This document shows positions 28,256-40,000 of a stretch of 40,000 nucleotides of DNA, in pieces (the first letter of the stretch is position 1; each line of letters opens with the position of its first letter). A model generated the notes under the pieces. It worked only from the letters and a program-made list of their open reading frames with translations, did not search any database and had not been told where the DNA came from. Made by a program: the position numbers and the translations under genes. The stretch is from Anaerolineales bacterium (GTDB lineage: Bacteria > Chloroflexota > Anaerolineae > 4572-78 > J111): assembly GCA_015075405.1 (NCBI GenBank), contig JABTUK010000005.1:773747-813746 (forward strand). The letters run 5' to 3'.

Positions 28256-28328
28256 TGAGCCGTGTGGGACTCGAACCCACGACCCATTGCTTAAAAGGCA
28301 ATTGCTCTTCCGACTGAGCTAACGGCTC
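28256..28328 (-). tRNA. tRNA-Lys (anticodon UUU)
   Basis: The reverse complement GAGCCGTTAGCTCAGTCGGAAGAGCAATTGCCTTTTAAGCAATGGGTCGTGGGTTCGAGTCCCACACGGCTCA folds as a cloverleaf: 7-bp acceptor stem, GCTC/GAGC D stem, ATTGC/GCAAT anticodon stem with loop CTTTTAA, and a GTGGG-TTCGAGT-CCCAC T arm. CCA is not encoded. Confidence 0.9.
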
Positions 28329-28410: not shown

Positions 28411-29358
28411 TTATTTATTCTTATTTAAATTACTTAAGGGGCTTGTTTCTTGATGTCGCTTACACCGGCCCTGATTGACTACTTTGGTGTATTTTGCGGT
28501 CGTCGTGATTGATGCGTGCCCCATCTGGTCGCGAATATCCAGAAGATCGGCCAGGTTTCTCAGGGAATAAATAGCATAGGCATGGCGAATCGCATAAGTC
28601 GTGAACTGATCAATGCCGGTTTTTTCTTGCCAGAAATGCAACCGCTGTCGGATGCCGGATGAAGTGAAGGGACGAAAACCCTTATGTTGATAATCGCTGA
28701 TCCAAAGATGGCGTAATTCATCGGATACACCCAGTTCCTGGCGCTTCTTCTTCCAAATAGTCAGGATGCGGGCGACATCATCAGTAAACACAAGCTCTCG
28801 ATCTTCGTAATCCTTGTTGCTGTGAACCCGAATCGTGCGATTTATTAGATCAACATCATCTACTTGCATCGCTGCTAGTTCACCAGGCCGAGCAGCCGTG
28901 TCCAAAGCGACAAAAAACAAAGCCAGATCACGTATGTCATGCCAACTATCTCCTCTTTGTTCAATTGTGAATAGCATGGAGGACATATCTTCTTCTGGCG
29001 GCGCTTTCGGCAGCGGTTTAGGAGCTGGAATTGTGTCCAAAAATTCAAGCGGGCTTTGGCTGATGTAGCCGAATTTTTTTAGCCAATTGAGCCAGGATCG
29101 CAGCGCGCGATAGTAATTATTGCACGAGTAATCTTTCAATCCTTTGACCTTGAAAGTTTCCAGGAAGGTGAGGCAGTGAGTTACGGTAGGCGGCCAGGTA
29201 GGTGGTTGTTGTTGAATGGCATCCCGATAATAACCAAGTACATTCCTGTACCAGGTAACCGTGGCCGGCTTCTTTGTTACCTGCTTGAATTTGAGAAATA
29301 GATCAATGTAATAATTGAGGTCCTGCTCGACAACAACAAAAACAAAATTCGGCGTCAT
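28411..29358 (-). CDS. Tyrosine recombinase / phage-type integrase
   Basis: 315 aa. SAM-like N-terminal domain. Catalytic-domain residues: TAARPGEL (Arg), IRHAYAI (His-x-x-Arg region), GHASITTTAKY (His, Tyr nucleophile). Confidence 0.9.
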   Translation of the reverse strand: MTPNFVFVVVEQDLNYYIDLFLKFKQVTKKPATVTWYRNVLGYYRDAIQQQPPTWPPTVTHCLTFLETFKVKGLKDYSCNNYYRALRSWLNWLKKFGYISQSPLEFLDTIPAPKPLPKAPPEEDMSSMLFTIEQRGDSWHDIRDLALFFVALDTAARPGELAAMQVDDVDLINRTIRVHSNKDYEDRELVFTDDVARILTIWKKKRQELGVSDELRHLWISDYQHKGFRPFTSSGIRQRLHFWQEKTGIDQFTTYAIRHAYAIYSLRNLADLLDIRDQMGHASITTTAKYTKVVNQGRCKRHQETSPLSNLNKNK

Positions 29359-30055: not shown

Positions 30056-30754
30056 ATGACGACAGCAAATCTTTGGTCTGAGGTGTTGAAAATGCTTCAA
30101 CATCAAATGACTAAAGCGACATTTCAAACGTGGCTTGAAAACACGACTGCCCAGGAAGAGGACGGGCGGCTGATCGTGTCAACAGCCAACAGCTTCGGCC
30201 AGGATTGGCTGGACAACCGATTACGCTCTACCGTCGAGCTGGCCGTGGAGACTGTTTTTGGGCGAAAGTTACCTGTTGAATTCCGTGTAGCCGAAAACAG
30301 CGGCTATCAGCCGGAACTGTTCTTCACCGGCACGTACCGGGATGCCTACAACGCTATTGTCCAGCCGGATAAGCAGCATTATTGCAGCCGCTACTTCCAT
30401 CAACAATGGCTGCCGCTGCTGGGGCCGGAACTGTGGCTGCTGATCTGGGAAATGCGGACAAGGTGCAGTTGGGACTGGAAAACGGGTGAGATTAGACGCG
30501 ACGTGGTTGAGGCAACGGCCCAAGAGTTGGGGGCAGCGATTGGCGTGAGTGAAAGCACCTTTTGGCGATTACTGAGACACGAACACGCCTCCAAATTTAT
30601 TACTCGCGTCGGAACCAAACGCCGTTACTCAAAAACCCAAAGCGGCACGGTCAATGAGAAGAATATCTGGCGGGTTCGACTGGATGATCCTCTGATTCCG
30701 GCCGATGAGGAGAGGCTAAAACAACAGATGTCTCCCTGTCAATTTGACAGGTAG
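30056..30754 (+). CDS. Replication-initiator-like protein with DnaA N-terminal-like domain plus HTH
   Basis: LWSEVLKMLQHQMTKATFQTWLENTTA...LIVSTANSFGQDWLDNRL...VEFRV matches the DnaA domain-I pattern. C-terminal HTH-like ATAQELGAAIGVSESTFWRLL. Its 3' end runs into the iteron array. Confidence 0.65.
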   Translation: MTTANLWSEVLKMLQHQMTKATFQTWLENTTAQEEDGRLIVSTANSFGQDWLDNRLRSTVELAVETVFGRKLPVEFRVAENSGYQPELFFTGTYRDAYNAIVQPDKQHYCSRYFHQQWLPLLGPELWLLIWEMRTRCSWDWKTGEIRRDVVEATAQELGAAIGVSESTFWRLLRHEHASKFITRVGTKRRYSKTQSGTVNEKNIWRVRLDDPLIPADEERLKQQMSPCQFDR

Positions 30755-30876
30755 AGCAGCGGAGTGTCTCCCTGTCATTTTGACAGGGAGAGGGGGGTCT
30801 CCCTGTCAATTTGACACTTGATTCTACCTGTCAAAATGACAGGGAGATCAGGGGGTCTACCTGTCATTTTGACAGG
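30735..30876. repeat. Five iterons with a 17-bp palindromic core CCTGTCA-WWW-TGACAGG, followed by an AT-rich stretch (candidate origin)
   Basis: Cores start at 30735, 30771, 30802, 30827 and 30860 (25-36 bp spacing). gattaattaattcttttaaatctctttaaatcctgaatatttat follows. Confidence 0.8.
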
Positions 30877-31067
30877 TGATTAATTAATTCTTTTAAATCT
30901 CTTTAAATCCTGAATATTTATCTCTAATTCCACGTGGAAAAATAATCGGCCCGGCTCGCGCCTCTGACCGCGCTCACCGGACCTGACCAAAAACAGATAC
31001 GTCGGAGGTATCTATTGATGGCTGCAAAAATAATAGCAAAAAAGGCCCTACCTGAAAAGGGGGGCCA

Positions 31068-32852: not shown

Positions 32853-33272
32853 ATGCTGCTGCACCGGATCAACCCCGAAAGAAATGAGGCCAGGTTTTAC
32901 CTGGTTATCGTTGCACCCACCCTCCTTGATCCCATCGCCGTGTGGCGGGTGTGGGGCCGAATTGGCGGGGCGCAGCGCAGCAAAATTGACCCGTGCGGAT
33001 CAGCGGCCGAGGCCGAGAAGTTGGCCGAAGCCATGATCCGGCGTAAAATTAAACGCGGCTACAGAGTCGCAGGAGAACCCGATGAGCAGGAAAAAGAAAA
33101 AGCCAACCCGCAAGGCTCGCCGCCAGAACCGACAGCAGCCGACGATTCAACATCCCGACCGGCAGGAGGGGACCTGTCCGGAGTGCGAAAGCGCCGTGAC
33201 CGTGCGCGAAATCAAAAATTTTCCCAGCCCGGTCCGGCGGGCGACGGTCCATTACAAATTGAGCTTCTGTAA
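32853..33272 (+). CDS. WGR-domain protein
   Basis: RINPERNEARFYLVIVAPTLLDPIAVWRVWGRIGG...KIKRGYRV fits the WGR domain. The low-complexity tail overlaps the next ORF. Confidence 0.65.
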   Translation: MLLHRINPERNEARFYLVIVAPTLLDPIAVWRVWGRIGGAQRSKIDPCGSAAEAEKLAEAMIRRKIKRGYRVAGEPDEQEKEKANPQGSPPEPTAADDSTSRPAGGDLSGVRKRRDRARNQKFSQPGPAGDGPLQIELL

Positions 33273-33726
33273 TTTCTGCGCCTGGAACAACGTCGAGCTA
33301 CAGGCGTTGGTCCCGATGAACCTGAAGCCGCTGAGCGACCAGGAGCTGGAGCAGATTCATAACGCGGTTATGGACCGGCTGCAACAGGAGGTAAGGGCCT
33401 ATGCCGAATTTCAAAAGAAGCTGTCTACTCTGCCTTTTGGGATGGCTACCTCGGCTATCGGCGCAGCGCTGGGCTTCGATGAGGCCGAGCTGTCCGTGGC
33501 CCGACAGATCGCCGAGAGAGGCATTTCGCTTGAAGTCGCTTACGGCGAGCTGTGCCAGGCGCTGGCGGCCGAGGTCCGCGCCGAGGCTGTCTTTAAGGCG
33601 CTGGCAGAGGAGCCGGCGGGACACGTGGCCCTCGTAGCTTCGGTAGAATACTGGAAAGACAAGGGGCTGCCGCCACCCTGGCTAGAACTGGTTGAACCTT
33701 ATTTACGCCAAGCGGAGGACCCATGA
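33082..33726 (+). CDS. Hypothetical protein with basic N-terminus and CxxC...CxxC zinc-ribbon
   Basis: AGGAGA lies 6 nt upstream of the ATG. CPECES...FCNFC. The stop overlaps the next start (ATGA). Confidence 0.5.
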   Translation: MSRKKKKPTRKARRQNRQQPTIQHPDRQEGTCPECESAVTVREIKNFPSPVRRATVHYKLSFCNFCAWNNVELQALVPMNLKPLSDQELEQIHNAVMDRLQQEVRAYAEFQKKLSTLPFGMATSAIGAALGFDEAELSVARQIAERGISLEVAYGELCQALAAEVRAEAVFKALAEEPAGHVALVASVEYWKDKGLPPPWLELVEPYLRQAEDP

Positions 33727-35447
33727 TGTCAATCGGCCAAACCGCCGACGGCAAGCCGTTCACGCTGCCGTCTGATGCCGTGACCCAAAAATTCGCCTTT
33801 CTGGCTCAATCCGGCGCAGGAAAATCGTATGCCGCGATGAAACTGGCTGAGGCATTTCTGACTATCGGGGCGCAAATCATTGCGCTTGACCCTGTGGGGG
33901 TGTGGTGGGGGCTACGCGTCGCGGCTGATGGCAAGAAAGCCGGTTTTCCCATCGCTGTCTTTGGTGGGGATTACGGCGATCTGCCTCTCCCGGCTACCAG
34001 CGGCGCCCTGGTAGCCGATCTCCTGGTCGAACATCGCATTGGCGCGGTGCTGGATGTGTCCGCGTTCGAGCTGCCCGATCAGCGGCGTTTTGTGGCCGCG
34101 TTTGCCGAACGATTCTTTCAGGCCAAAAAACGCGCCCGCAGCCCGGTCCATCTTTTCCTGGAGGAAGCGCAAACTTTTGCCCCCCTGCGCCCCGAAAGAG
34201 ACGAGACGGTGATGCTGAACCGGGTGGAGCGCCTGGCCCGGCTGGGTCGCAACTACGGCGTGGGCTGGTCGGTCATCTCGCAGCGACCGCAAGAAGTTCA
34301 CACGAAGGTGCGCAACCAGGCCGGAACGCTGATTGCAATGCGGACCATCGGCCCGCACGAACGCAAGGCCGTGGCCGAATGGATGAACGATAACGCCACC
34401 ACGCCAGCAGACCTGGACCTGGTTAATGATTTGCCAACGCTGGAAACCGGCGAAGCTCACATCTATAGCCCGTCATTCCTCAAAATTTCCACGCGGATAC
34501 GAATTGGCCGGCGGCAAACCTTTGATTCTTCAGCCACTCCCGAAGATGGCATCACCACTGCCCAACCCCGCCCCCTGGCCCCGGCCGATTTAGAGGCGCT
34601 GCGCCAGGCCATGCAGCAGGTGGTTCAGGAGGCCGAGGCCCGCGATCCGGTGGTGCTGCAACGCAAGATTGTTCAGCTTGAAAAAGAGCTGAGGGCGAAA
34701 GCAAAGGTAGAGCGGGTTGTCGAGCGGGTGGAGGTGCCGGTACTGCAAGATGAGCAAATCACCCAGTTGCAGCAGGCAATCAGCAGTTTAGCTGACATGG
34801 GGCAGCAGTTGGTCAGTGTAGCGCAAGACTTGGGGACGGCGCTGGCCAGGGTAGTGTCTAGCTCCGCTCCGCCGCCTGTTTCGGCTCCGTCTGTTTCGCC
34901 CCCAGAGGCCCGGCCTACATCTCGACATGTCAAACCATCTCCCGCACCCAGGAGAGCCGACTCAGACATACCACAACTTCGTGCTGGGGAACGGCGCATG
35001 TTGGAAACACTGGCTCGACGTTATCCTCTGCGCGTGACCCGCGCCCAATTGGGTACTCTGGCCGGATTTACTCCGTCAGGCGGGACTTTCGGAACCTATT
35101 TTGGCACCCTCAAACGGGCCGGATTGATTGAGGAAAGTAGTGGGGAGATCCAGGTCACTCAGGCAGGGCTGGATTACTTGGGTTACACCACGCCGCCAGC
35201 GCCGCAAACAACCGAGGAGATTCTGGCCATGTGGCGGGAAGCCTTGCGAGCGGGAGAGCGTAAAATGCTGGATGAATTAGTTGCTGTTTATCCTGACTCG
35301 CTTTCCCGTGAGGAGTTGGGAACACGAGCCGGGTTTACGGTGAGCGGAGGTACGTTTGGGACGTACCTGGGAACGCTGCGCCGGAATGGGCTGGTGGAGG
35401 TGGACGGCGACCAGGTGCGGGCCAGCGAAACCCTGTTCTTAAGTTGA
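33723..35447 (+). CDS. HerA/FtsK-like P-loop ATPase with two C-terminal winged-helix repeats (candidate dsDNA translocase/transfer protein)
   Basis: Walker A FLAQSGAGKSYAA. Walker B VHLFLEEAQ. Tandem ~75-aa repeats (ERRMLETLARRYP...GFTPSGGTFGTYFGTLKRAGLIE and ERKMLDELVAVYP...GFTVSGGTFGTYLGTLRRNGLVE). Confidence 0.75.
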   Translation: MMSIGQTADGKPFTLPSDAVTQKFAFLAQSGAGKSYAAMKLAEAFLTIGAQIIALDPVGVWWGLRVAADGKKAGFPIAVFGGDYGDLPLPATSGALVADLLVEHRIGAVLDVSAFELPDQRRFVAAFAERFFQAKKRARSPVHLFLEEAQTFAPLRPERDETVMLNRVERLARLGRNYGVGWSVISQRPQEVHTKVRNQAGTLIAMRTIGPHERKAVAEWMNDNATTPADLDLVNDLPTLETGEAHIYSPSFLKISTRIRIGRRQTFDSSATPEDGITTAQPRPLAPADLEALRQAMQQVVQEAEARDPVVLQRKIVQLEKELRAKAKVERVVERVEVPVLQDEQITQLQQAISSLADMGQQLVSVAQDLGTALARVVSSSAPPPVSAPSVSPPEARPTSRHVKPSPAPRRADSDIPQLRAGERRMLETLARRYPLRVTRAQLGTLAGFTPSGGTFGTYFGTLKRAGLIEESSGEIQVTQAGLDYLGYTTPPAPQTTEEILAMWREALRAGERKMLDELVAVYPDSLSREELGTRAGFTVSGGTFGTYLGTLRRNGLVEVDGDQVRASETLFLS

Positions 35448-35450
35448 AAA

Positions 35451-35474
35451 GCCTCCTTCCACGTGGAAGGAGGC
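35451..35474. terminator. Perfect 24-nt palindrome; likely terminator after the ATPase gene
   Basis: gcctccttccacgtggaaggaggc followed by tttgtattt. A related hairpin (gccccttccgcgtggaaggggc) is at about 39933-39954. Confidence 0.6.
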
Positions 35475-35546
35475 TTTGTATTTAGTCGGCGAAGGAGTAA
35501 TACTAACGCCTCACGGATCACCTGCTGCCGCCGAGACTCCACGATT

Positions 35547-36164
35547 TTATTTAGGTAATATCAGTGTCTCATTTTCCTCAAGTTCTTCGGTGTCTACTTT
35601 ACCTCCATAAGAATAAATTACTACCAACTTCTTTCGCTCACCAGGAGGTGTATCACCGAGAACTCTCTTGTGCGCCTGCATTTCAAGTCTTCCTGCTGAT
35701 ATGTTTGCCCTCACCTTATGAGTAACATTATTCATTTTGTCTTTTGCACCCCATACCGCATGATGAATGGTTAAAGTTAAAAAGGGAGACTGAGCATCTT
35801 GTAGACCAGTTATTAGTTTATCCCAAAGTTGGGGGTCTTTATAATCTACATATTGAAGAGTTTTCAATCGAGGGTGCAGTTCATCAGGCTTAATGTCTAT
35901 TAACGGAATCACCCTCACTCCTGCCCCGTATGCAAAAGCCCACTCGTAAGTTACATACTCTGACGCTTTGGCTTCCGGTGTCATTATAACAATGAGTGCA
36001 ATAGATTTTCTAATTTCCTCATCAATTTTCTTTCGCCAGTCTATTCCAACATGTATATTACGATCTATCCAAACATCAAAACCTGCTTCTTTAAGTTTGA
36101 TCTCCAAAGGTTGAACAAAGTCAATCTGATCACGTTGGTAGGAAATAAAGATTTGGGGCAACAT
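35547..36164 (-). CDS. TIR-domain protein with a C-terminal beta-rich domain
   Basis: IFISYQRDQIDFVQPLEIKLKEAGFDVWIDRNI...IALIVIMTPEAKASEYVTYEWAFA (TIR_2-like, with the conserved Glu). C-terminal LTIHHAVWGAKDKMNNVTHKV...LGDTPPGERKKLVVIYSYGG. Confidence 0.85.
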   Translation of the reverse strand: MLPQIFISYQRDQIDFVQPLEIKLKEAGFDVWIDRNIHVGIDWRKKIDEEIRKSIALIVIMTPEAKASEYVTYEWAFAYGAGVRVIPLIDIKPDELHPRLKTLQYVDYKDPQLWDKLITGLQDAQSPFLTLTIHHAVWGAKDKMNNVTHKVRANISAGRLEMQAHKRVLGDTPPGERKKLVVIYSYGGKVDTEELEENETLILPK

Positions 36165-36216
36165 TCACCTCGCTCATCTTCGTTCAAGGAACCTTATTAG
36201 TAACCTACTATCCACT

Positions 36217-36627
36217 TTACAATGATAAATAAATACTGATGAAAGTAACTAAGATAATGGAAACCAGTATAACGCCATGAAAAGCAACGAGTGTTTTTGA
36301 AAGAGTTACGGAAGCCCAGGGAGCAACTTCGTCTTTGACTTTGGAGACATTCATTGAGAAGTCTATCTCTTCCTCGGATAATCCGCGAACGTAGTCATAA
36401 AGTTTTCTGAATAACCTCTCCTGGTGTAAAAAGTATCCATCAAGACCCCAGAAAACTATTGCTGGAAAATAAGCAAGATATACAAACAATAATTGCTTAC
36501 CCCCAGCTGCCAATGCAAACATTGCGGAAATTAGCACAACACTCCAGCCCTTTAATAAGAACGAGTTGGAAGAGAGCCGATTGACTACTCCCTGAATCAT
36601 TTCCAGGTGTGCAAGTTTGTTCGACAT
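36217..36627 (-). CDS. Small three-TM membrane protein, upstream partner of the TIR gene
   Basis: Start set at the ATG at 36627, which has AAGGAGG 6 nt upstream. TM segments GWSVVLISAMFALAAG, LLFVYLAYFPAIVFWGL and LVAFHGVILVSIILVTFISIYL. 52-nt gap to the TIR start. Confidence 0.65.
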   Translation of the reverse strand: MSNKLAHLEMIQGVVNRLSSNSFLLKGWSVVLISAMFALAAGGKQLLFVYLAYFPAIVFWGLDGYFLHQERLFRKLYDYVRGLSEEEIDFSMNVSKVKDEVAPWASVTLSKTLVAFHGVILVSIILVTFISIYLSL

Positions 36628-36648
36628 ATTTGCCTCCTTTTTAGTCTC

Positions 36649-36703
36649 TAACATCGCCGTTCAGTTGCACGGACCGCGCATGTCAACTGCATCAGCGATG
36701 TTA
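36649..36703 (-). promoter_or_regulatory. 55-nt hairpin immediately upstream of the 3-TM gene RBS
   Basis: taacatcgc...gcgatgtta outer stem with an inner cagttgca / tgtcaactg stem. No U-tract. Confidence 0.45.
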
Positions 36704-36759
36704 GCCAGTTTACCCTTTAATATCTTGTAGTTTCTGCTTTATGAGATCCGTAATCTCAA

Positions 36760-37095
36760 TTATCGAGTAGTCCTTTGAATTAATATAGCCAACTGTGGGA
36801 AGTATTTCTTTGAGTTCCGTATCATCAGTTGGGAATATGATAAATCTGCCTCAATCAAATAAGCCTGGTACATTTGGGCTTCGTTGAAATTACATTTGTG
36901 GAGGCTGGCCTTGACCAATTTAGCTTTTCTCAGATTAGCTGCTCTAAAATCGTAGCAGTTGTTAATTACTGGGTGAGTCTCTGACGGTTTACCATGAACC
37001 TTCAGAAAAGTGATTTCCTGTCGGTATTTGCCAATTCGCCATCTTGTAAACCATTCGCTTTTTCGCAGTTCGGCTCTTTGACCTCGATTACTCAT
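36760..37095 (-). CDS. Short pentapeptide-repeat-like protein
   Basis: 111-aa ORF. FRAANLRKAKLVKASLHKCNFNEAQMYQAYLIEADLSYSQL has the A(D/N)LxX periodicity. A TATAAT lies about 25 nt upstream. Confidence 0.4.
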   Translation of the reverse strand: MSNRGQRAELRKSEWFTRWRIGKYRQEITFLKVHGKPSETHPVINNCYDFRAANLRKAKLVKASLHKCNFNEAQMYQAYLIEADLSYSQLMIRNSKKYFPQLAILIQRTTR

Positions 37096-37183
37096 ACTCT
37101 ACTCGACAAATATCTCATTATAATCAGTTACACCAAGATTCTGAGCACCGACTAGTTTTTCCATAGCTGTAAGTACCGCTATT

Positions 37184-37300
37184 AAACAAAAAGCGCCGCC
37201 CTTTGACCAGGCGGCGCAAATATGCTACCATGCACAATTAAACCGGGCTGGTGGCACACACACCTGATCCGGGTGAAGCCCCGTTGCAGCGGGGCTTTTT
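37184..37300 (+). repeat. Structured ~115-bp unit, copy A (hairpin 1, conserved linker, terminator-like hairpin plus T5); candidate small RNA or cassette boundary
   Basis: aaacaaaaagcgccgcc-ctttgacca-ggcggcgcaaatatgctac...aaaccgggctggtggcacacacacctgatccggg..agccccgttgcagcggggcttttt. Near-identical copy at 39763-39877. Confidence 0.6.
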
Positions 37301-37583
37301 CATAGTATAACATAAGCGGGCTGGATTGACAACAAAAACAAAAACGGGTAAACCTTTTAGATTACCCGCGAAGTTGGCGCTGGCCTTTTTTAATAGCCGC
37401 TACCTTCTACATCTATTCGTTTGATTACAGCCTAGCTTTTAATGAAACTTGATGTCTACATAGCATATACAGTATTATAGGAGTTCAAACACTACTAGAT
37501 TTGGTATAGCCCGCTATAGCTACAAAAGTTCTTACCCATTTGGATGAATCCGATTAATGGTGTAGAATCATTTGCTAAATAGA

Positions 37584-37615
37584 GAAACCACCGTTGTTCG
37601 AGCAACGGTGGTTTC
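37584..37615. other. Perfect 13-bp-stem hairpin in the non-coding region
   Basis: gaaaccaccgttg-ttcgag-caacggtggtttc. Confidence 0.6.
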
Positions 37616-37743
37616 AATAGTAAGCCGGGTCTCGGTCCAGAGATAACCACGGCCTTGCTTGTTGCAAGTCGTGATTATACCCTAACGTTTCCATTTGTCA
37701 ACTATTGCCAATGGATACAGTTAATATTGCCTATCTGAGGCTT

Positions 37744-37780
37744 AGACCCGGCTATCTAATAGTCGGGTCTTTTATTGTTT
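37744..37780 (+). terminator. Intrinsic-terminator-like hairpin with T-rich tail, upstream of the 182-aa ORF
   Basis: agacccg-gctatctaatagt-cgggtct followed by tttattgttt. Confidence 0.5.
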
Positions 37781-37803
37781 GAGTTGATAAATTCAATCAA
37801 CTC
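37781..37803. promoter_or_regulatory. Perfect 8-bp-arm palindrome (candidate operator) 14 nt upstream of the RBS
   Basis: gagttgat-aaattca-atcaactc, then gtaAGGAGGctatATG. Confidence 0.4.
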
Positions 37804-37828
37804 TCAATTGTAGCTGTAAGGAGGCTAT

Positions 37829-38377
37829 ATGTTGAAACTGTATGCTAACGAGTTCTCTGAAATCCCCATAGTGCTTTCTAAAAGAGCAGACTTACGTGGG
37901 GCAATGATTAAATTAGTTGAAACGGAATCAGTAGCTGGCAAAGTTACGGAGGGGGGAAACCGACTTGATCTATTTAGATCAGTATTAAAGCCACTAATTA
38001 TTGGTGAATTGACTCTCACTAATGCATACCAGAGGACAATGCTTCACCTTACCAGAGAGAACTCAATCCATGCTGGTAACAATAAGGTTTTTGCAACTGG
38101 GTGGGCTGAAAGGCTTGTACGTACCCAGTATAGCCGATTTTACAACCAAGCTGTAATGGAAGAGTTACTTGCAAAGGGACAGACAGAATGTTTTGTTCCA
38201 CATTCATCTGAAGAGAACGTAGGCTCGAAGTGCTCACTCTATTTGGCTGGGAAAGCACATAATCTCAAGGCTCTTTATAATCTTTTAATTTCCTCTTATG
38301 CAAAAGGTTCTTGGGACAGCTCTCCCAAGATACCCGATCATCCCCATTGTACCCATGTGGTAACTCCAGTTTTATAA
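37829..38377 (+). CDS. Hypothetical 182-aa protein, family not recognised (possible Cys/His metal site near the C-terminus)
   Basis: Strong RBS AAGGAGG 4 nt upstream. AT-rich codon usage. ECFVPHS...SKCS...DHPHCTHV. The TIR-like gene follows 19 nt later. Confidence 0.65.
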   Translation: MLKLYANEFSEIPIVLSKRADLRGAMIKLVETESVAGKVTEGGNRLDLFRSVLKPLIIGELTLTNAYQRTMLHLTRENSIHAGNNKVFATGWAERLVRTQYSRFYNQAVMEELLAKGQTECFVPHSSEENVGSKCSLYLAGKAHNLKALYNLLISSYAKGSWDSSPKIPDHPHCTHVVTPVL

Positions 38378-38396
38378 CAAGGAAGTTTGTTACATT

Positions 38397-38921
38397 ATGA
38401 CGTACTTGAAAGAAGATCAACTTCGGAATATAGCCAAATTTAGAGGTAATTCTAGATTCTTAGAGTCTACCAAATCAGTGGCCAAGGTAAGTATATTTCT
38501 TTCCCACAGTCACAGGGATAGAGAGATTGTCGAGGGATTTATTACTTTATTGGCAAATTCCAGTCAGATTACAATTTATGTAGACTGGCAAGATGGAGAC
38601 ATGCCTAGAATAACAAATAGAGATACAGCTCAACGAATTAAGTTAAAGATAGGGGAACTTAATCTCTTTATGATTCTTGCCACAAAAAATGCCATGAATT
38701 CTAAATGGGTTCCCTGGGAGATTGGTGTTGCTGACAGCAAAAAGCCTCTAAATAGAATTCTTGTTGTCCCTGTTGCAGACCCTAGTGGACACTTTTATGG
38801 AAACGAATATATGCAATTGTATCAACGGATTGAAGTGTCTAGTAGCGGTGATTTGGGAGTATTCGAACCCAACGCGATTAGTGGATATACAGTTAAAGAA
38901 TGGTTAAAGAGCCATCTCTAA
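38397..38921 (+). CDS. Short TIR-like domain protein (ThsB-sized)
   Basis: VSIFLSHSHRDREIV...ITIYVDWQDG...LATKNAMNSKWVPWEIGVAD. Paralogous to the convergent ORF at 38931-39524. Confidence 0.75.
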   Translation: MTYLKEDQLRNIAKFRGNSRFLESTKSVAKVSIFLSHSHRDREIVEGFITLLANSSQITIYVDWQDGDMPRITNRDTAQRIKLKIGELNLFMILATKNAMNSKWVPWEIGVADSKKPLNRILVVPVADPSGHFYGNEYMQLYQRIEVSSSGDLGVFEPNAISGYTVKEWLKSHL

Positions 38922-38930
38922 ATGACTTTA

Positions 38931-39524
38931 TTAGACCATGTGTTCTGTAGGATTTTCACCTTTAAGCCAAGCAGAAAAATTTACGTATTTGTTTTCAGTC
39001 TCATTAACCCAAAGTTGGTCATTGTTTGCCCTACTGAGTGCTTTTGTGACATAGGGATAAAGCCCCAGATACTCTTGGCCTTTGTAATATTCAGAAATCG
39101 TCACTTGATCCGAAATTGGCACAATGGCAACCCGACCATGTATACCATCTCCATAACCGAGTTCCCAAGGCATCCATTTAGACTCCGGAGAATTAATGGA
39201 AATCGCATACAAGAGACATCGGCATTTTTTGATCATATAGCGTAACCATTCGGCTGTTTCTCTAGAAACCTGTGAACGATTGTAGGCAGGCTCTTCTATC
39301 CAGTCAATAAAGACTGAGCACTTGAAATTTTCGAGTTCAGTCTTAAGCCCTAAAACGTACTCTGAATCGAGGTACCTGTGAGATAGGAAAATATCAAAGT
39401 TATCACCGCTTTTAGCTTTGAATAACACATCTTCCAACAATAAAATATCGGATTCAGATTTAACCGAGTATGAATATCTAAATTTAGCTACCCTCTCTAA
39501 CTCGGGTTTACTAAATAAGGCCAT
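38931..39524 (-). CDS. Short TIR-like domain protein, paralogue of 38397-38921
   Basis: FDIFLSHRYLDSEYV...SVFIDWIEE...SINSPESKWMPWELGYGDG. Shares the AKFR, FLSH, (V/I)DW, SKWxPWExG, YxGxEYxxLY and WLK motifs with its neighbour. Confidence 0.75.
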   Translation of the reverse strand: MALFSKPELERVAKFRYSYSVKSESDILLLEDVLFKAKSGDNFDIFLSHRYLDSEYVLGLKTELENFKCSVFIDWIEEPAYNRSQVSRETAEWLRYMIKKCRCLLYAISINSPESKWMPWELGYGDGIHGRVAIVPISDQVTISEYYKGQEYLGLYPYVTKALSRANNDQLWVNETENKYVNFSAWLKGENPTEHMV

Positions 39525-39762
39525 TGAATCTCACCTTTTTAAGAAAATTCTCAAGTATAAGTAGGCCAGTTATTCCGCACAATAGTTGCTCTCTAAATGT
39601 CTCTTTAGTAATGAAAACTACAAAACACCCTTCTGACCATGCTTTAGCCTCTTATTAAATATGATAATCACTGACCCATGTATCCATAACACTGACGGCA
39701 TCCATAAGATTTGCCCCACGAAGGCATCAAAATTGATGGTGCCACGGTCCTAAGATAACTTG

Positions 39763-39877
39763 AAACAAAAGCGCCGCCTGGTCAAAGGGCGGCGCAAATA
39801 TGCTACTAGGTACAAAATAAACCGGGCTGGTGGCACACACCTGATCCGGGCCAAGCCCCGTTGGCGTGGGGCTTTTT
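39763..39877 (+). repeat. Structured ~115-bp unit, copy B
   Basis: aaacaaaagcgccgcc-tggtcaaag-ggcggcgcaaatatgctac...aaaccgggctggtggcacacacctgatccggg..agccccgttggcgtggggcttttt. The loop of hairpin 1 is the reverse complement of the loop in copy A. Confidence 0.6.
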
Positions 39878-40000
39878 GATTGCCATTATGATAACATAAT
39901 TTAGTTGAATTGACAATCAGAATTACAAATAAGCCCCTTCCGCGTGGAAGGGGCTTATTGATGGGTACTCCTACAAAACTCAAACTGTTCGAGTTTTGTA

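Follow-up and report, generated by a model that had tools for sequence, protein, structure and literature searches.

A compact low-GC island near the right end of a 40,000-nt stretch of Anaerolineales bacterium DNA (assembly GCA_015075405.1, contig JABTUK010000005.1, positions 773,747 to 813,746; this whole stretch is hereafter the window) carries three Toll/interleukin-1 receptor (TIR) genes, here called TIR205, ThsB174 and ThsB197, together with a gene for a small three-transmembrane (3-TM) protein. With moderate confidence, we regard the island as one Thoeris-like TIR-signalling anti-phage system of the PDC-M50 kind (probable type V Thoeris), in which a single 3-TM effector would be served by all three TIRs. 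The original prediction, made from the sequence of the window, had proposed an undescribed locus with a possible new combination of partners; this claim of novelty did not hold, as the 3-TM protein is PDC-M50A, which is catalogued with a ThsB-type TIR, so that the TIR/3-TM pairing is an already catalogued candidate and no new kind of system. The value of the TIR locus is confirmatory, in that the PADLOC candidate PDC-M50 appears to be, or to closely parallel, type V Thoeris, whereas the more novel element of the island is a 182-aa protein, discussed below.

The predicted effector has 136 aa, counted from the start codon that its homologues use, and matched all four PADLOC PDC-M50A models (best PDLC04686, E 1.2e-50), with no Pfam family at E ≤ 1 and no NCBIfam match. 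Three hydrophobic segments (residues about 22-43, 46-64, and 108-136) agree with the three transmembrane segments initially ascribed to it, and the AlphaFold2 (AF2) model was all-helical (pLDDT 92). Its conserved basic residues include K4, H7, R17, K26, R74, and R81. The structural comparison suggested along with the original prediction was productive for the 182-aa protein, but a PDB fold search with the 3-TM model returned nothing significant (best E 0.6).

In this context, the B component of PDC-M50 (PDC-M50B) is a ThsB-type TIR, and the usual layout of the system is one effector with one TIR immediately after it. We detected 2867 homologues of the 3-TM protein, and PDC-M50A homologues were present on 137 plasmids, many of them conjugative plasmids of Klebsiella and Escherichia. 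Among 80 fetched metagenomic loci encoding a PDC-M50A homologue, a TIR gene was located within 2.5 kb in 73, nearly always 0-70 nt downstream and on the same strand, while six of the seven loci without a TIR had less than 175 nt of sequence downstream. The same TIR-adjacent arrangement was found in the plasmid loci, and on two long contigs the PDC-M50A homologue was followed at once by a TIR gene matching both PDC-M50B and ThsB models. Moreover, two or three TIR genes were present in 13 of the 80 loci, as counted by hand from the table of loci. Since it matches PDC-M50A and its homologues are almost always directly beside TIR genes, the 3-TM protein can be identified as the predicted partner that the original prediction thought to be missing; indeed, the expectation of conserved synteny was borne out for the 3-TM/TIR pair and failed for the 182-aa gene, which has a TIR nearby in one of 36 loci.

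The six open reading frames (ORFs) originally reported for the island were all found at the same coordinates (Table 1), and the three TIR assignments were upheld by matches to TIR_2 and ThsB hidden Markov models, although the Pfam TIR_2 score of ThsB197 (27.6 bits) lies slightly below the 28-bit cut-off. A single Glu was invariant when the three window TIRs were aligned with the type I ThsB of B. cereus, type III TIRs of P. aeruginosa, a TIR of type IX, and two further TIRs belonging to related loci. This residue corresponds to E74 in TIR205, E108 in ThsB174, and E121 in ThsB197, as had been claimed for the catalytic position, and aligns with the Glu of the RYEI motif of B. cereus ThsB, known as the catalytic E85.

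The three window TIRs belong to three different clades, and each has relatives that flank PDC-M50A elsewhere. TIR205, separated from the 3-TM gene upstream by 52 nt that include a GAGGTG ribosome-binding site, carries an extra, unassigned C-terminal domain of about 90 aa after its TIR_2-type domain, and the latter is 30% identical to a 202-aa TIR encoded directly downstream of a PDC-M50A homologue (locus L093). ThsB174 is 47% identical to TIR1 of P. aeruginosa type III Thoeris and 41% identical to a TIR in a PDC-M50A locus with three TIR genes (L061). Furthermore, ThsB197 is 43-46% identical to TIRs encoded 10-15 nt upstream of PDC-M50A in L060, L070, L075, and L090, the match covering residues 40-195 in L075, where the ORF is cut by the contig end, and the full length in the other three loci.

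Scans of the island ORFs against Pfam, PADLOC, and NCBIfam gave no match to SIR2, Macro, SLOG, STING, cyclase, Argonaute, SIR2-SLOG, Macro-TM, or caspase-like domains, in agreement with the canonical partners originally listed as absent; the sole match named after a reverse transcriptase (RT) was weak (E 0.02) and fell on the TIR part of an RT-TIR model, no RT domain being present. In the same scans no effector-like domain was found in the island other than the 3-TM protein. Because all three TIRs have relatives flanking PDC-M50A and the island holds no other effector domain, one effector with three TIRs is the most economical arrangement.

Recently, Thoeris was extended to types V-XI, with 29 putative effector classes, and in type V a 3-TM effector annotated as DUF2270 (PF10028) and renamed ThsF is encoded in the order ThsF, ThsB, ThsB and is triggered by 3'cADPR (Yirmiya et al., bioRxiv 10.64898/2025.12.03.692087). 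PDC systems, on their part, are 145 candidates predicted by guilt-by-embedding and experimentally untested (Payne et al., bioRxiv 10.1101/2024.01.29.577857). We found that full-length identity between the TIRs listed as "DUF2270 - Type V" in Table S1 of the former study and TIRs encoded directly downstream of PDC-M50A homologues is 60-82%, the top value of 82% being reached over 153 aa, and that ThsB197 shares 51% and 46% identity with type V TIR domains. Two IMG genes, 2598686313 and 2620551308, are located between TIRs of the type V listing. Likewise, the TIR beside a PDC-M50A homologue on a Priestia megaterium plasmid shares 49% identity over 255 aa with the experimentally verified type V TIR of B. 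thuringiensis, and the type V TIR clade and PDC-M50A are alike in their plasmid distribution, with several accessions common to both lists. From these identities, the Priestia TIR, the shared plasmid distribution, and the gene order, PDC-M50A is very probably the ThsF family or its sister, and the window system is a probable member of type V Thoeris; by analogy, it is well supported that the window system would work like type V.

Two other comparisons with the type V study were set aside. The "3TM" category of its Table S1 could not be matched to PDC-M50A, since the TIRs listed there are type IV-like and there is no overlap in scaffold IDs, the type V rows being the relevant ones; and a B. cereus plasmid match to the verified type V TIR belongs to a SIR2-containing locus and was uninformative. 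As a separate observation, on Streptomyces plasmid NZ_CP108986.1 (208199-208588) a PDC-M50A homologue adjoins or overlaps a gene for a HIT-domain protein, and, as HIT hydrolases are the effector class of type XI Thoeris, this locus may hold two effectors.

The likeness of the island to type V Thoeris thus lies in a small three-TM effector beside at least one ThsB TIR, in the effector-then-TIR order, and in the frequency of extra TIRs; in contrast, the window effector has no PF10028 match, no window TIR comes from the commonest partner clade, and the genes are spread over 4 kb with unrelated genes between them. The signal is 3'cADPR in the verified case of type V. With PDC-M50 the island shares component A, matched by the window 3-TM protein, and the gene order of canonical loci; the TIR directly downstream is nevertheless of the TIR_2 type, with an extra C-terminal domain and without a PDC-M50B match. 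Thoeris types II, VII, and X, whose effectors are Macro-TM, SLATT, and ion-channel proteins, follow the same logic, in which an ADP-ribose (ADPR)-derived signal made by a TIR acts on a membrane-disrupting effector, although the window 3-TM protein matched no Macro, SLATT, or ion-channel domain. The SIR2-SLOG, Macro-TM, SLOG, or caspase-like effectors of types I, II, III, and IV were not found in the island.

Several observations weigh against a single type V-like system. The 3-TM protein had no PF10028 (DUF2270) match at E ≤ 1, none of the 120 listed closest homologues carries a precomputed Pfam domain, and the plasmid homologues are labelled "hypothetical protein" in RefSeq; since the PF10028 match is absent, the identity of the 3-TM protein with ThsF rests on the partner TIRs and on topology. 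None of the three window TIRs matched PDC-M50B (E ≤ 1), whereas the TIRs of canonical loci reach 9.8e-66 and 3.3e-41, and the window TIR clades occur elsewhere with other effectors (Thoeris types I, III, IV, and IX). Furthermore, ThsB174 and ThsB197 lie 1.7-2.3 kb from the 3-TM gene, with unrelated genes and a repeat intervening, and ThsB174 appears to be co-transcribed with the 182-aa gene, which ends 19 nt before it. Should PDC-M50A truly fall outside PF10028, Pfam-based annotation would miss a large effector family, with the homologues and plasmids counted above.

Following the model of the characterised types of Thoeris, phage infection would be detected by one or more of the TIRs, and a TIR, by means of its conserved Glu, would turn NAD+ into an ADP-ribose-derived signal, which would be 3'cADPR if the island works as type V does. 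This signal would be bound at the cytosolic, basic face of the 3-TM protein, which would then oligomerise and breach the membrane, with growth arrest or cell death halting phage replication. The three TIRs would act in this scheme as sensors or signal synthases for a shared effector, so that the 3-TM protein would pair with TIRs of three or more clades, one of these TIRs being of the TIR_2 type and carrying an additional domain.

Table 1. Features of the low-GC island and of the start of the element that carries it (window coordinates).
Feature	Position	Strand	Evidence and details
TIR205	35547-36164	-	Pfam TIR_2 3.3e-23; TIR domain residues 1-112; Glu74
3-TM protein, predicted effector	36217-36627	-	PADLOC PDC-M50A; hydropathy; AF2 model
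ThsB174	38397-38921	+	PADLOC ThsB 1.5e-53; TIR_2 4.9e-8; ThsB_TIR 1.2e-6; Glu108
ThsB197	38931-39524	-	PADLOC ThsB 4.4e-54; Glu121
Stand-alone MuF/SPP1-gp7-like protein, predicted, 182 aa	37829-38377	+	Family alignment; AF2; BFVD Foldseek; PHROG
Pentapeptide-repeat ORF, 111 aa	36760-37095	-	PF00805 3.7e-9, residues 49-86 only
Repeat unit, copy 1	37183-37335	-	Promoter-like site at 37332-37304; about 118 nt with three hairpins; intrinsic terminator at 37217-37193, then T-run
Repeat unit, copy 2	39761-39916	-	Promoter-like site 39916 to 39888; structured stretch; terminator-like hairpin; upstream of ThsB197
Palindromic hairpin, terminator-like	35448-35477		Terminator scan and sequence; left edge of island, just past HerA-like gene
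Palindromic hairpin	39930-39960		Sequence and GC rise beyond; right edge of island, resembles the left hairpin
tRNA-Lys	28256-28328	-	ARAGORN; start of island-carrying element
Tyrosine integrase	28411-29358	-	Phage_integrase; phrog_1 5.4e-37; start of island-carrying element

An alternative to which we give a modest chance of being right is that the island stacks several modules, of which the 3-TM protein and TIR205 alone would form a system, as a PDC-M50 variant; ThsB174 and ThsB197 would be orphan leftovers of another Thoeris or stand-alone NAD+-depleting TIRs, and the 182-aa gene a third unit. The canonical PDC-M50 composition of one effector and one TIR fits this arrangement, as does the occurrence of the two ThsB clades elsewhere with SIR2-SLOG, SLOG, caspase-like, and other effectors, and a direct repeat of about 160 nt, whose two copies lie 2578 nt apart and bracket exactly the block of the 182-aa, ThsB174, and ThsB197 genes, suggests a separate acquisition. 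On the other hand, ThsB197-like TIRs were found immediately upstream of PDC-M50A four times independently, several TIRs per PDC-M50A locus are a common finding (13 of 80, even though the contigs are short), the island lacks a second effector, and in the characterised systems it is short ThsB proteins of this kind that produce the signal; all of this weighs against stacked modules.

Each copy of the repeat unit stands upstream of a minus-strand TIR operon, copy 1 preceding the pentapeptide, 3-TM, and TIR205 genes. On that strand the unit comprises an extended -10 promoter-like site, a stretch of about 118 nt with three hairpins, and a GC-rich hairpin followed by a T-run; no further minus-strand promoter-like site was found between either copy and the first downstream gene start. 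The terminator scan called a terminator in copy 1 only, and the two copies carry the loop of this hairpin in opposite orientations. The unit may be a leader/attenuator or a small RNA. An Rfam scan of the island gave no credible RNA family for it, a covariance model run over 680 kb of fetched loci found no more copies, nor did a scan of IMG/VR for exact 21-mers, and two copies are too few for a test of covariation. Integron attC sites were considered and rejected, since the unit forms three separate hairpins instead of a single long, imperfect palindrome and has no IntI in its vicinity.

The 182-aa protein had been left without a family, and this was partly confirmed, as it had no Pfam, NCBIfam, or significant PADLOC match; its placement was nevertheless achieved by structure and PHROG comparison, which point to a stand-alone relative of the MuF/SPP1-gp7 head-morphogenesis domain. 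The AF2 model (pLDDT 95.4) had no PDB counterpart, but a Foldseek search of BFVD returned dozens of matches named "minor capsid protein", "MuF-like minor capsid protein", or "phage head morphogenesis domain" (best E 4e-4, prob 1.0, TMq 0.63). In addition, the family matches minor-head and head-morphogenesis PHROGs that SPP1 gp7 also matches (phrog_115, 2.8e-5; phrog_4728 in nine of 23 members), and its motifs WxERLxRTQxSR, C..LAG, and HPHCTH resemble gp7. A Cys/His cluster (C121, C135, H171, H173, C174, and H176) is conserved. Likeness to MuF/SPP1 gp7 (PF04233) hence extends to the fold, the PHROG families, and the motif pattern of an R-T-Q/E helix, C..L.G, and H-P-x-C-x-H.

This assignment has its limits, since gp7 itself matches PF04233 at 6.8e-33, whereas none of the 23 members of the 182-aa family did so at E ≤ 10, and an hhalign comparison of the family alignment was negative against the single SPP1 gp7 sequence, the search for gp7 homologues to build a profile having yielded one protein only. 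MuF proteins are virion head components and often carriers of injected effectors (PMC5512222, PMC9503650); in contrast, the 182-aa protein is stand-alone, with its own N-terminal helical domain, and its family resides in cellular genomes and archaeal plasmids and not in phage head modules with portal and terminase. Indeed, the family was present in none of 50,697 phage records and on three contigs only in IMG/VR. Some members are fused to AbiEii: in P0246 (471 aa) and P0368 (543 aa) the family domain is C-terminal to an AbiEii nucleotidyltransferase toxin, fusions that would link the MuF-like domain to an abortive-infection effector. In the window itself, the AbiEi match of the 182-aa protein was weak (PADLOC E 0.01) and no AbiEii is present.

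We detected 263 homologues of the 182-aa protein, which are 50-62% identical across Chloroflexota, Acidobacteriota, Enterobacterales, and others, and the family also occurs in archaea and on haloarchaeal plasmids; solo homologues are present in Serratia, Yersinia, and Providencia. The family is small, 1.84 billion proteins yielding 133 representatives at 50% identity. A TIR gene lay within 3 kb of a homologue in one of the 36 other genomic loci, and in Haladaptatus about 850 bp separate the homologue from a TIR gene. Among the neighbours are many that match defence models (PDC-S06, mad3, MkoA, Ppl, Hhe, DndC, and a CBASS cyclase with a 2TM effector). Neighbours were heterogeneous in these loci, with no recurrent neighbour family and no partner kept beyond close relatives, and in several genomes the gene stands alone between housekeeping genes. 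A role as a conserved Thoeris effector was ruled out by the single TIR-associated locus and by the lack of recurrent neighbours. The gene is better viewed as an independent mobile gene that shares the island, for which a link with TIR genes is not the rule.

Two further observations concern the mobility of this family. The GC of homologues is often far below that of their surroundings (L010, L011, L013, L016, L030, and L006; e.g., 0.47 vs 0.64, and 0.35 vs 0.50), which suggests mobile single-gene insertion; a Kofleriaceae homologue, for its part, has native GC and conserved synteny. That a capsid-assembly domain should occur as a solo gene in both bacteria and archaea was the less anticipated outcome of this analysis and would be, if true, a testable case of hosts domesticating a virion-assembly module.

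A wider reading, to which we attach a low probability, concerns the 182-aa gene and, separately, the repeat unit. The 182-aa family would be a hitherto undescribed cellular, stand-alone branch of MuF/gp7 recruited for defence, possibly as a decoy or sensor of the phage portal or head, which would feed ThsB174 in the island and act solo or fused to AbiEii elsewhere. The repeat unit would be a conditional-termination leader silencing a toxic system until infection.

Quite improbable, in our view, is that the 182-aa protein and ThsB174 make up a new two-gene TIR system of their own, with the 182-aa protein as a phage-sensing adaptor, binding head or portal, or as a new effector. In its favour, both genes lie on one strand with the short gap noted above between them and have separate ribosome-binding sites (a strong AAGGAGG in the case of the 182-aa gene), and the AbiEii fusions show that the domain can couple to a defence effector; the frequency of defence genes among the neighbours and the Haladaptatus locus point the same way. 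Moreover, in L066 (1-1430) a PDC-M50A and TIR pair has, immediately upstream, a gene whose product is divergently related to the family in its C-terminal, MuF-like half. Nevertheless, the association with TIR genes is as rare as stated, no partner is conserved past close relatives, the gene occurs solo amid housekeeping genes, and an hmmsearch with the family profile among ORFs near the 80 PDC-M50A loci retrieved the L066 relative only. L066 is an unrelated metagenomic contig and represents a second co-occurrence of the 182-aa family with a PDC-M50A/TIR system.

A decaying remnant without current function, as might be read from the short pentapeptide ORF with a single matched repeat stretch, from about 730 nt (37095-37829) that are hairpin-rich and hold no ORF of at least 60 aa (two ORFs of 51 and 53 aa), and from window TIRs that are not of the canonical PDC-M50B type, is highly improbable, given that the five main ORFs are full length against their homologues and keep the invariant residues, that ribosome-binding and promoter-like sites are present, and that identical island copies were recovered in assemblies of three separate samples. 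The pentapeptide ORF itself, recognised as pentapeptide-like from the outset on what proved to be one short stretch, had no relative near any of the 80 PDC-M50A loci and is probably a fragment or passenger outside the conserved system.

The reading of the island as a horizontally acquired TIR-based defence islet was supported. In 1-kb windows, GC was 0.58-0.61 over 31-35 kb, fell to 0.50 between 35 and 36 kb, and was 0.39-0.42 over 36-40 kb. The window has identical counterparts in a 271-kb JGI contig (L001; L001 coordinate + 27828 = window coordinate) and in an Anaerolineales metagenome-assembled genome, and on L001, at 400-nt resolution, the low-GC block spans about 35480-39980 (about 4.5 kb, GC 0.37-0.45), almost all of it within the window, with GC returning to 0.56-0.61 past about 39980. 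Thus, the shift to AT-rich sequence that the original prediction had judged by eye at about 35.5 kb was confirmed as a drop from about 0.60 to 0.37-0.45 between 35.5 and 39.95 kb. On one side the island is flanked by a HerA/FtsK-like ATPase gene and on the other by a convergent 400-aa gene, and the genes past it on both sides belong to the backbone of the element.

The core of the left edge hairpin is CCTTCCACGTGGAAGG, and the right edge carries the same core with one mismatch. The two hairpins are near-identical (core CCTTCC[A/G]CGTGGAAGG) and sit exactly at the GC boundaries of the island. Such pairing suggests that the island was inserted into a bidirectional terminator lying between two convergent genes of the backbone, or that this terminator was duplicated; the island would then be a low-GC insertion in a terminator-containing intergenic region of an integrase-bearing element. 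The view that the island is cargo of an integrative element is reasonable, considering the integrase beside tRNA-Lys and the replication genes and HerA/terminase-like ATPase around the island, and on this basis the 3-TM/TIR system would travel as a compact low-GC islet within an integrative element in a Chloroflexota (Anaerolineales) genome. The DNA left of about 27.9 kb consists of housekeeping genes, and the attR of the element was not found within 48 kb of sequence. A contig of GCA_024434315.1 that shares the housekeeping genes upstream stops at about 27.9 kb, immediately ahead of tRNA-Lys, which is consistent with a strain-variable element boundary.

The surrounding DNA includes a DnaA_N-like gene followed by five iteron-like repeats, with a DnaB helicase gene farther along. 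The iterons (30729-30881) are five copies of a 28-nt palindrome-containing repeat (TGTCTCCCTGTCAATTTGACAGGTAGAG), the array beginning in the last 26 nt of the DnaA_N-domain gene (30056-30754) and running past its end, and it is probably the replication origin of the integrative element. Between the iterons and the island, a WGR-domain protein gene (32853-33726) overlaps a 214-aa ORF, and the HerA/FtsK-like ATPase (33723-35447, 574 aa) has two C-terminal winged-helix-like repeats and a weak match to a terminase PHROG; together, the WGR and HerA/FtsK-like ATPase genes represent unusual backbone machinery for such an element.

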